Positions 351-1,212 of a stretch of 5,087 bases of DNA are shown here, one piece after another. Location of the stretch: the IMG/VR virus record IMGVR_UViG_3300000357_000189; one strand, given 5' to 3'. Each line of letters starts with the position of its first letter. Positions within the stretch are counted from its first letter, which is position 1. The DNA is from a virus. Lineage: Duplodnaviria; Heunggongvirae; Uroviricota; Caudoviricetes. The translations under genes were made by a program, and so were the position numbers. The notes beneath the pieces were generated by a model. It was given only the letters and a program-made list of their open reading frames with translations, searched no databases and was not told the DNA's origin.

Positions 351-446
351 NNNNNNNNNNNNNNNNNNNNNNNNNNNNNNNNNNNNNNNNNNNNNNNNNN
401 NNNNNNTACCCGTAGCCAGAAGAAAATAATTTTTTTCGTGTTTTTT

Positions 447-462
447 CAGTATGCGCATACTG
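447..462. promoter_or_regulatory. Perfect 16-bp palindrome CAGTATGCGCATACTG in the int-alpA intergenic region; candidate protein-binding site
   Basis: The sequence equals its own reverse complement and follows two T6 runs (431-436, 441-446). It has no loop, so it fits a dimeric DNA-binding site better than an RNA hairpin. Confidence 0.3.
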
Positions 463-484
463 GATATGCGAACAGATACAACGT

Positions 485-522
485 GCAACAATGAGCAACA
501 ATGTGGAACAACTACGAACAAG
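485..522 (+). repeat. Four direct repeats with an AACAA core at exact 10-bp phasing
   Basis: AACAA occurs at 487-491, 497-501, 507-511 and 517-521 within gcAACAAtg / agcAACAAtg / tggAACAAct / acgAACAAga. Helical-turn spacing is typical of arm-type or iteron-like recombinase/regulator binding sites. Confidence 0.35.
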
Positions 523-794
523 AGGCGAAAAAGCGTACGGATTTATAAGTAGCTGATTTTTAATGTGTTACTGGTTTTTTGTACACTAGCGAATCACTCT
601 TTAAAGAGCGAGAAAAAAGGCATGGAACAATATTTTATGCCTTTGTATTAACGTGAATTTAAAAGATTTTATTCTTACTGTTTCATTTTCTGTAAATCAT
701 ACATCCTCAGTATTTGCCATTCATCACTCTAGCGGGAACAATACGACACAATAAGACACCTGATGACTCTTTAAGAAACGAAAGGGGGGCAATA

Positions 795-983
795 GTGTTA
801 AGCACTGATCGGTTTATACGTGAAAAAGAATGCGAAAAACTAACCGGCCTTAGCCGTACGTGTCGCTACCGCCTGGAAAAGGCCGGACAATTCCCATCAC
901 GTCGTAAACTTGGCGGTCGTTCCGTTGGCTGGTCTTTATCCGAGGTTCTGGCCTGGAAGGATAGCTGCAAGGCAGTTCATTAA
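795..983 (+). CDS. alpA: AlpA-family (Vis/excisionase-like) small DNA-binding transcriptional regulator, 62 aa
   Basis: GTG start at 795 follows the Shine-Dalgarno AGGGGGG (784-789). Translation VLSTDRFIREKECEKLTGLSRTCRYRLEKAGQFPSRRKLGGRSVGWSLSEVLAWKDSCKAVH matches the AlpA pattern (HTH ...TGLSR.T.Y.L...FP...LG.RSVGW...E...W). The ORF-track start at ATG 714 has no RBS and would give an atypically long N-terminus. Position directly downstream of int is as in CP4-57/P4-like elements. Confidence 0.8.
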   Translation: MLSTDRFIREKECEKLTGLSRTCRYRLEKAGQFPSRRKLGGRSVGWSLSEVLAWKDSCKAVH

Positions 984-1040
984 TCACGCTGGCGGCACGC
1001 AGCCGCCACACATCAATCATCTGAACACAGAGCTATAACC

Positions 1041-1212
1041 ATGAAGATTGAATATACGCCANNNNNNNNNNNNNNNNNNNNNNNNNNNNNNNNNNNNNNN
1101 NNNNNNNNNNNNNNNNNNNNNNNNNNNNNNNNNNNNNNNNNNNNNNNNNNNNNNNNNNNCGTTCGCCCTGGTGAAACTGAAAAACAACAAAATTGGGGTT
1201 TTTCAGGTATAA
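1041..1212 (+). CDS. Possible small hypothetical ORF (about 56 aa) spanning N-run 1062-1159; low confidence
   Basis: ATG at 1041 (MKIEYTP...) runs into the gap. After the gap a different frame reads ...[16 protein letters not shown] with stop TAA 1210-1212, immediately before the hairpin at 1218-1238. The SD is weak (GAG at 1030-1032). Continuity depends on a frame change across the N-run, which is seen at other gaps in this window. Confidence 0.2.

Follow-up and report, generated by a model that had tools for sequence, protein, structure and literature searches.

What is a perfect palindrome of 16 bp doing just downstream of the integrase gene of a mobile element? The sequence in question, CAGTATGCGCATACTG, lies at positions 447-462 of a viral contig of 5,087 nucleotides (IMG/VR record IMGVR_UViG_3300000357_000189; we will call this whole stretch of DNA the window). 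It is a non-coding, exact inverted repeat whose 8-nt arms adjoin directly. It starts 18 nt past the stop codon of the integrase gene (TAA, 427-429), in the spacer between int and alpA (which starts at 795). The original prediction, which was made from the window alone, had both the palindrome and its place in the int-alpA spacer right. It had also described two runs of six T's just before the palindrome. There are indeed two runs, but they are T7 and T6 (T7-CGTG-T6, 430-446).

The palindrome and the island that carries it

Outside its N-runs, the window is 100% identical to E. coli EcPF5 (NZ_CP054236; we will refer to this locus as L001). In the annotation of NZ_CP054236, int is at L001 12794-14023, and window positions 407-1061 correspond to L001 14001-14655. 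The runs of N in the window (for example, 275-406 and 1062-1159) do not preserve length: the 132 N's at 275-406 stand for 47 real bases. Because the masking alters the length, open reading frames that read through N-runs are artefacts, and window coordinates shift relative to the source genome.

The host island, of about 11.4 kb, sits in tqsA. It is annotated with int, alpA, Icd-like genes, a YlcI/YnfO gene on the minus strand, small ORFs, and genes for a P4-alpha-type primase, an SSB, a major capsid protein, and a head-decoration protein, and with no tail genes. Within the window, the 3' part of the tyrosine integrase gene occupies 1-429 on the plus strand (with 275-406 masked). This integrase is P4-like and contains Arm-DNA-bind_3 and Phage_integrase domains. 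The alpA gene (795-983, plus strand) encodes a protein of 62 amino acids that matches Phage_AlpA in Pfam (E=5e-17). Directly after the primase gene, at L001 18970-19210, there are dense GGTAGA(T/C)A iterons in both orientations, which are a probable origin of replication. We do not consider the palindrome to be an iteron, as the origin after the primase gene uses GGTAGAYA.

As far as can be judged from sequence, this organization is that described for Gram-negative PICIs (PMC6092414, PMC10111431): int, alpA, and the primase gene are co-oriented, the island is about 11 kb, the origin follows the primase gene, and att arms are present. As in the family of EcCICFT073 and EcCIEDL933, a unidirectional island of about 11 kb runs from int through alpA, an Icd/Bro-like zone, the primase gene, and the origin to the capsid gene. 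This likeness concerns the host island, not the palindrome. Close relatives of the island are found at other chromosomal sites, such as between roxA and phoQ in O157:H7. AlpA is the activator that is required for the induction of Gram-negative PICIs, and in EcCICFT073 it activates its own promoter (PMC6092414). The AlpA antiterminator of P. aeruginosa, which acts with the ABE (GGGACG), is apparently a different protein with the same name (residues are numbered up to H142, versus 62 amino acids here), so we set it aside.

Is the palindrome too long to have arisen by chance? No palindrome in the window is longer, and a scan of L001 12600-24020 found just one other of 16 bp. (This second perfect palindrome, TATGGGGATCCCCATA at L001 23801-23816, is toward the right end of the island and about 75 bp short of the attR-arm repeats.) But of 3,000 first-order Markov simulations of the window's 4,193 non-N bases, 8.8% had at least one perfect palindrome with arms of 8 or more (P≈0.09). 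Across 596 Gb of genome contigs there are 77 copies of the exact 16-mer, where about 139 are expected by chance, so it is not enriched. The sole homologous occurrence among the 77 is in Shigella flexneri. Matches cluster in Methylococcaceae and Psychrobacter, in what is apparently a conserved coding region, and those in Psychrobacter are unrelated to the element. The improbability of such a palindrome in 5 kb is thus a weak argument, of mild significance.

In IMG/VR, 40 of the 42 exact occurrences of the 16-mer are within this element family. The other two are unrelated chance matches, and this exact search of IMG/VR gave no operator that is common to phages. The palindrome's sequence was not found in the literature that we searched, and two papers on PICIs (PMC6092414 and PMC10111431) mention neither the palindrome nor the GNAACAA arrays that we describe below. 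We also considered a coding role and rejected it: an ORF of 33 amino acids from position 451 has no Shine-Dalgarno sequence, and in haplotypes with GTGAAAC an in-frame TGA shortens it.

Two alleles of the integrase 3' flank

We aligned the spacers from 11 E. coli genomes, 77 loci from IMG/VR (retrieved with the Int protein), and 20 metagenome contigs. The 3' flank of int has two alleles, which we call P (with the palindrome) and S (without it). The P block is a 30-mer that comprises CGTGTTTTTT, the palindrome, and GGATA. With at most one mismatch, it is present in 731 of 5,426 complete E. coli genomes, and in 570 of these it is perfect. The S allele reads TTTTTCAG-GATGCG-GACAACGTG, or AACGGACACAACGTG and similar, and it contains neither a palindrome nor a hairpin (hairpin z about 0). 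In elements with the S allele, Int is 84-91% identical and AlpA is 90-94% identical to the proteins of P elements, and the int-alpA architecture is the same. Because the S clade has the same genes and the same architecture but no palindrome, the palindrome is optional for the family as a whole. Aligning related spacers had been suggested as a check on whether the palindrome is conserved: it is invariant in diverged P-clade sequences and absent from sisters with the same architecture, so that half of the outcome named in advance as refuting the prediction has been seen.

The two alleles are related by a single insertion. In a gap-aware pairwise alignment, P equals S plus the 21 bp GTATGCGCATACTGGATATGC (449-469), and once these are removed, both flanks align closely with the S2 subtype. 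Most of the palindrome is inside this insertion, by which the two clades can be told apart. In S elements, the homologous linker differs freely from subtype to subtype.

The P block is found with both alleles of the Int arm site (GGTGTAGTCAC, the GTCAC type, and GGTGTAGTTAA, the GTTAA type), with both alpA-proximal alleles, and with many cargo modules. Across the 41 palindrome-bearing contigs from IMG/VR, only Int (at least 88% identity) and AlpA (at least 95%) are universal. The P block is thus distributed independently of the island's other modules.

Two contigs deserve mention here. In IMGVR_UViG_3300045988_152974 (L100 / L133), an attL-type arm motif is preceded, 233 bp upstream, by one of the attR type. 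This looks like a rebuilt attP junction, which would fit a circular or concatemeric (excised) P-type element in the metagenome. In the metagenome contig OOCM01002889.1 (L236), the sequence diverges fully at exactly the junction of the T-tract and the palindrome and continues into an unrelated coding region. This junction is either a rearrangement breakpoint or a chimeric assembly.

To judge how constrained the palindrome is within the P clade, we compared six diverged E. coli sequences with the P allele. None of the 16 columns of the palindrome varies. In the same sequences, the variable fraction of third codon positions is 0.31 in int and 0.39 in alpA, and about 0.33 of the columns of the spacer vary (averaged over segments). 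If the 16-nt stretch is taken as specified in advance, the absence of variation in it has P≈0.002. The palindrome is also inside the longest invariant run of the spacer (27 nt, 440-466). Three deeply diverged haplotypes carry the identical block, and their markers are linked across it on both sides, so a recently transferred patch is less likely. The palindrome block therefore looks as if it is selectively maintained within the P clade, although a short block that is spread by gene conversion could look constrained too.

Among all of the loci that we examined from E. coli, IMG/VR, and metagenomes, only two variants of the palindrome were seen, T4C and G9A. T4C is found in the element of O157:H7 PA20 and in two contigs. 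G9A alters a central base; it is the commonest variant, and it arises in at least two backgrounds. Each is a single asymmetric change that breaks the symmetry, and we saw no symmetric variation that altered both arms. The density of rare variants in the palindrome is similar to that in the adjoining T-tract and GGATA.

These observations bear on the possibility that the palindrome has no function. A template-switch or snap-back mutation (an inverted duplication) may have made the palindrome as part of the 21-bp insertion, which was then inherited, or spread by recombination, with the 3' end of int. The structure of the insertion fits this well: it holds the left arm and its exact inverted copy, with the flanking direct repeat TATGCG...TATGCG. 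Copying predicts symmetry through the very center of the palindrome, and no function requires it. Its absence from sister elements, whose linker is unconstrained, is also as expected of a relic, as is the persistence of single substitutions that break the symmetry, including in O157:H7. Nor did we find compensatory changes, partner sites, or genome-wide enrichment of the 16-mer. Against this, no column of the palindrome varies across haplotypes in which 31-39% of synonymous sites do, and the linked markers on both sides argue against a recently transferred patch. We consider a neutral relic to be a real possibility, but a somewhat unlikely one.

Whatever its origin, the palindrome is a real cis element that is specific to one clade: it exists at a fixed position, it is restricted to P elements, and it is invariant within their diverged haplotypes. 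It is a lineage-specific element within the integration module of a mobile element.

Phased repeats, hairpins, and other neighbors of the palindrome

The insertion lies between two features that are conserved in both clades. To its left are the T-tracts (430-446), which are about one helical turn apart and might bend the DNA. To its right, on the plus strand at 470-522, is an array of about six direct repeats, (G/A)AACAA(C/T), with exact 10-bp phasing. The bases between the repeat cores vary freely, while the cores are kept. One element (L115 / L145) has an extra 10-bp unit, GAGCAACAAT, in this array, which implies that the array grows or shrinks by whole units.

The repeats are not confined to this spacer. 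The pattern TTGTTNC-N3-TTGT has 13 matches in L001, versus 2.7 expected, and none of 100 shuffles reached 13. Ten of the 13 are in four clusters: the attL arm (L001 12704-12737), the int 3' flank (inverted; window 470-522), the alpA promoter (window 733-759), and the attR arm (L001 23883-23906). In both att arms, TTGTNNC repeats adjoin a doubled GGTGTAGTCAC motif. At the promoter-like site of alpA (TTGCCA-17-AACAAT, plus strand, 714-759), two or three further GNACAAT repeats overlap the promoter, and TTTGCCA is invariant.

Recombination directionality factors such as Xis, Cox, and Vis bind arrays of direct repeats that are phased by about 10 bp and lie beside arm-type Int sites. Given this analogy, and because AlpA activates its own promoter, the GNAACAA repeats are probably sites for AlpA as a recombination directionality factor or activator.

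The palindrome itself contains no GNAACAA unit. Viewed in reverse orientation, it adjoins the TTGT array at the place where the att arms hold the doubled arm motif. The locus thus resembles the intasome arrays of lambda Xis, P2 Cox, and P4 Vis, as well as the attP of HE-PICIs, for which a doubled arm motif has been described (PMC10111431), in that the palindrome abuts a phased array whose repeats also lie beside the doubled GGTGTAGTCAC motif in both att arms, a geometry that mirrors the doubled motif of HE-PICI attP. It differs from them in that the palindrome contains neither the repeat nor the arm motif. Also, unlike intasome arrays, the array after int is not part of an att site: it is 1.3 kb from attL, downstream of int, and inverted. 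By eye, the palindrome has no similarity to the att crossover region (ATAACAGCA), so we rejected the idea that it is a pseudo-core att site.

Further along the spacer, at 616-649 on the plus strand, there is a hairpin (AAAGGCAT/ATGCCTTT) with a U-rich tail, which is conserved in both P and S elements. Its variants keep the pairing via G·U pairs or compensated changes (GGCGTAAA/TTTACGCC; judged by eye). This hairpin is a probable terminator, either of int or of a short transcript from the spacer. A -10-like TATAAG at 544-549 follows just after the repeat array, and together with the hairpin it could define a small RNA of about 100 nt that depends on AlpA.

Other palindromic sequences were also noticed. 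A quasi-palindrome, CACTCTTTAAAGAGCG, is at 594-611; in relatives it is a perfect 16-bp palindrome, CACGCTTTAAAGCGTG, with changes in both arms (T->G with A->C), and it shows no conservation in the S clade. Between the minus-strand YlcI/YnfO gene and the plus-strand Icd-like operon are three more palindromic boxes, GTGTT(C/T)AACAC (1795-1805, 1811-1821, and 1836-1846), which look like the operators of a divergent promoter. A half-site of our palindrome, CAGTATGC (1773-1780), is beside these boxes. The leader of the Icd-like operon also has a weak symR-like match in Rfam (L001 15384-15456, minus strand; window ~1871-1943), which is below threshold (33 bits versus a gathering cutoff of 61; E=0.0035).

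Since the first terminator-like hairpin after int is the one at 616-649, the palindrome is probably transcribed with int. It might then act in RNA, as a hairpin of 8-10 bp in the int 3' UTR (UUCAGUAU-GCGC-AUACUGGA) that stabilizes or processes the int mRNA, either by retroregulation like that of lambda sib or by protecting the 3' end. The sib/tI element of lambda is an RNA hairpin after int that acts as a retroregulator, and the palindrome resembles it in being a hairpin-capable inverted repeat directly 3' of an integrase gene. The local fold has a minimum free energy of -12.2 kcal/mol (z=-2.0), and the commonest variant, G9A, would lie in the predicted loop. Moreover, a related family of integrases (75% identity; L182-L204 from IMG/VR) has a strong hairpin in the same place: ACGGCTGT...ACAGCCGT, within the first ~50 nt past the int stop codon (-23.6 kcal/mol, z=-5.5). 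A sub-variant of that family has a different hairpin there, GGCTGTTTTTC-TTCG-GGAAAATAGCC, followed by short direct repeats (AATATC or AGTTCG).

Several observations argue against a role in RNA. The S clade has no hairpin at this position. The outer stem differs between P haplotypes, and there are no compensatory or G·U substitutions, while T4C, which breaks a pair of the stem, persists. A loop has no need to be self-complementary. When 294 nt of context are folded, the result is not significant, and the hairpin is lost from the minimum free energy structure. No family in Rfam 15 overlaps the spacer at E<=1. Also, in contrast to lambda sib/tI, the stem is short, with no U-tract, no extended duplex of the RNase III type, and no covariation. 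We think that a functional RNA hairpin is unlikely.

An intrinsic (Rho-independent) terminator of int is far less probable still. A hairpin is possible 18 nt past the stop codon, but the T-runs are 5' of the stem, and neither strand provides a U-tract: the plus strand continues as GAUAUGCG and the minus strand as AAAAAACACG (an A-run). The stem would have 6-8 bp with just 2-3 G-C pairs and a GCGC loop. A terminator scan of 400-1060 reported no site here, and the hairpin at 616-649 is a better conserved candidate. These findings effectively refute a terminator.

Candidate proteins for the palindrome

With RNA-level roles disfavored, we return to the palindrome as a DNA site. As originally predicted, it is not a terminator, and a site for a dimeric protein is still the likeliest single reading, even though the sister clade lacks it. 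We tentatively propose that the palindrome is an accessory DNA site for a dimeric protein, while recognizing that the chances of this are below even. Both the binding and the identity of the protein are inferred.

The palindrome has the dyad that is expected of an operator for a dimeric regulator (12-20 bp): its arms match at 8 of 8 positions, with no spacer. Like the operators of LacI/GalR-type repressors (16-20 bp, with a central CpG) and of lambdoid phages (14-17 bp), it is a perfect dyad, of 16 bp, with a central C|G step. It also resembles the operators of dimeric repressors in being intergenic, in lying in a regulatory spacer of a mobile element, and in being conserved within a lineage. 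Also, at two helical turns, the 21-bp insertion keeps the T-tracts and the array in the same helical phase, which we count in favor of a DNA site.

There are differences as well. Besides being absent from sister elements, the palindrome lacks the overlapping promoter, the second operator or half-site, and the linked regulator gene of a typical dimeric repressor. A promoter scan found no promoter-like site above threshold at 430-480. We found no second copy and no co-varying half-site: CAGTATGC at 1773 is in only a subset of the palindrome-bearing elements. By our own comparison, AGTATGC matches the half-site pattern of the LacI family only partly.

We propose the following mechanism. The insertion would sit between the phased T-tracts and the putative AlpA array, both of which are family-wide. 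A symmetric dimer would bind the palindrome as an accessory site at the level of DNA, and the bound dimer may modulate assembly on the adjoining repeat array or transcription through it. The protein would be encoded outside the variable modules of the island, which points to a factor from the host or a helper phage, or, less likely, to Int.

Of the island's proteins that had been suggested as binders, AlpA and the RHH protein did not fare well. AlpA is unlikely because nearly the same protein is found with and without the palindrome, and because its likely sites, the direct repeats, share no motif with the palindrome. The RHH/YnfO-type module is variable. It is present in 31 of the 41 palindrome-bearing elements, with identities down to 34%, and presence of the half-site at 1773 does not track that of the palindrome, so we rejected this protein as the binder. 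We also rejected recognition by the arm-binding domain of Int, as the palindrome occurs with both alleles of the arm motif.

Could the host factor be LexA? A weak LexA-like box, TACTGGATATGCGAACAGAT (CTG-N10-CAG, 458-477), overlaps the right arm of the palindrome as well as a weak potential promoter (-35 TTTTCG at 433-438, a 17-bp spacer, and -10 CATACT at 456-461). If these were functional, then the insertion would give P islands a LexA-repressed transcript that runs rightward toward alpA. The CTG-N10-CAG spacing is correct, and in the left half 9 of 10 positions agree with the consensus. This left half is identical to that of the ruvAB box. A natural variant, G463T, turns it into a perfect left half, TACTGTATAT. 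By an approximate matrix, which we built from SOS boxes, this site has the second-best LexA-like score in the window. The ends of the box (CTGGATA and ACAGAT) are conserved across P haplotypes, and its center is variable. Also, a far better LexA-like box precedes the capsid operon of this island, which makes SOS control of the island plausible.

But the score is borderline, and the matrix is approximate: CTGG-N8-ACAG at 458-477 scores 10.5-11.3, versus 0.7-9.2 for the 19 training boxes. Beyond CTGT, the right half is a poor match, the promoter falls short of the scan's threshold, and the invariance of the left arm is left unexplained. The palindrome itself is not a LexA box. The 20-mer that is centered on it, TTCAGTATGCGCATACTGGA, is identical at 15 of 20 positions to the recA operator (TACTGTATGAGCATACAGTA), but the essential trinucleotides are swapped: it has CAG-N10-CTG where LexA needs CTG-N10-CAG, and its HI-like score is 16-18 (approximate matrix). 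Furthermore, alpA of EcCICFT073 was reported to be SOS-independent (PMC6092414). Overall, we regard control of this spacer by LexA as improbable.

The box near the capsid operon is outside the window, at L001 20280-20329. There, a TTGCAC-N17-TATAAT promoter is followed by the good LexA-like box, AGCTGGATGAACATCCAGTT, 34 nt upstream of the operon, and a 14-bp palindrome, CTGATTATAATCAG, adjoins the box. This arrangement suggests SOS control of the packaging genes. Operon I of SaPIs is under SOS control.

We also compared the locus to the dif and cer sites at which Xer recombinases resolve multimers. Window positions 450-477 match E. coli dif at 17 of 28 positions, including 8 of 11 in the XerC arm and 5 of 6 in the center, and just 2.2% of shuffles reach this score. 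However, the match in the XerD arm is only 4 of 11, on which ground we rejected a dif-like site, and the overall match is due to a shared TGCGCATA core. P haplotypes differ from one another in the right-hand part, and in the S clade the site is missing. A role in Xer recombination is hardly credible.

The way in which helper phages turn on Gram-negative PICIs via alpA is only partly understood. Should the palindrome prove to be a true binding site, then P and S are a natural on/off polymorphism of 21 bp, which could help to identify a new regulator of excision or induction. At its most speculative, the insertion would be a modular sensor: an operator for a dimeric regulator from the host or a helper phage (possibly LexA), placed in helical phase beside the AlpA array, so that binding gates the assembly of an AlpA filament or the activity of a cryptic rightward promoter. 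We view this as a long shot. If it were true, P-type islands would respond to a signal that S-type islands ignore, which would be a new layer of control over PICI induction, one that could be told apart between natural alleles. If the palindrome instead has no function, it cleanly illustrates how template switching makes a palindrome.

Either way, the map of phased GNAACAA arrays, at both att arms, the int 3' flank, and the alpA promoter, is the more useful result. These arrays are good candidates for undescribed binding sites of AlpA in this family of PICIs, and together with the P/S polymorphism, they are more useful leads than the palindrome itself.
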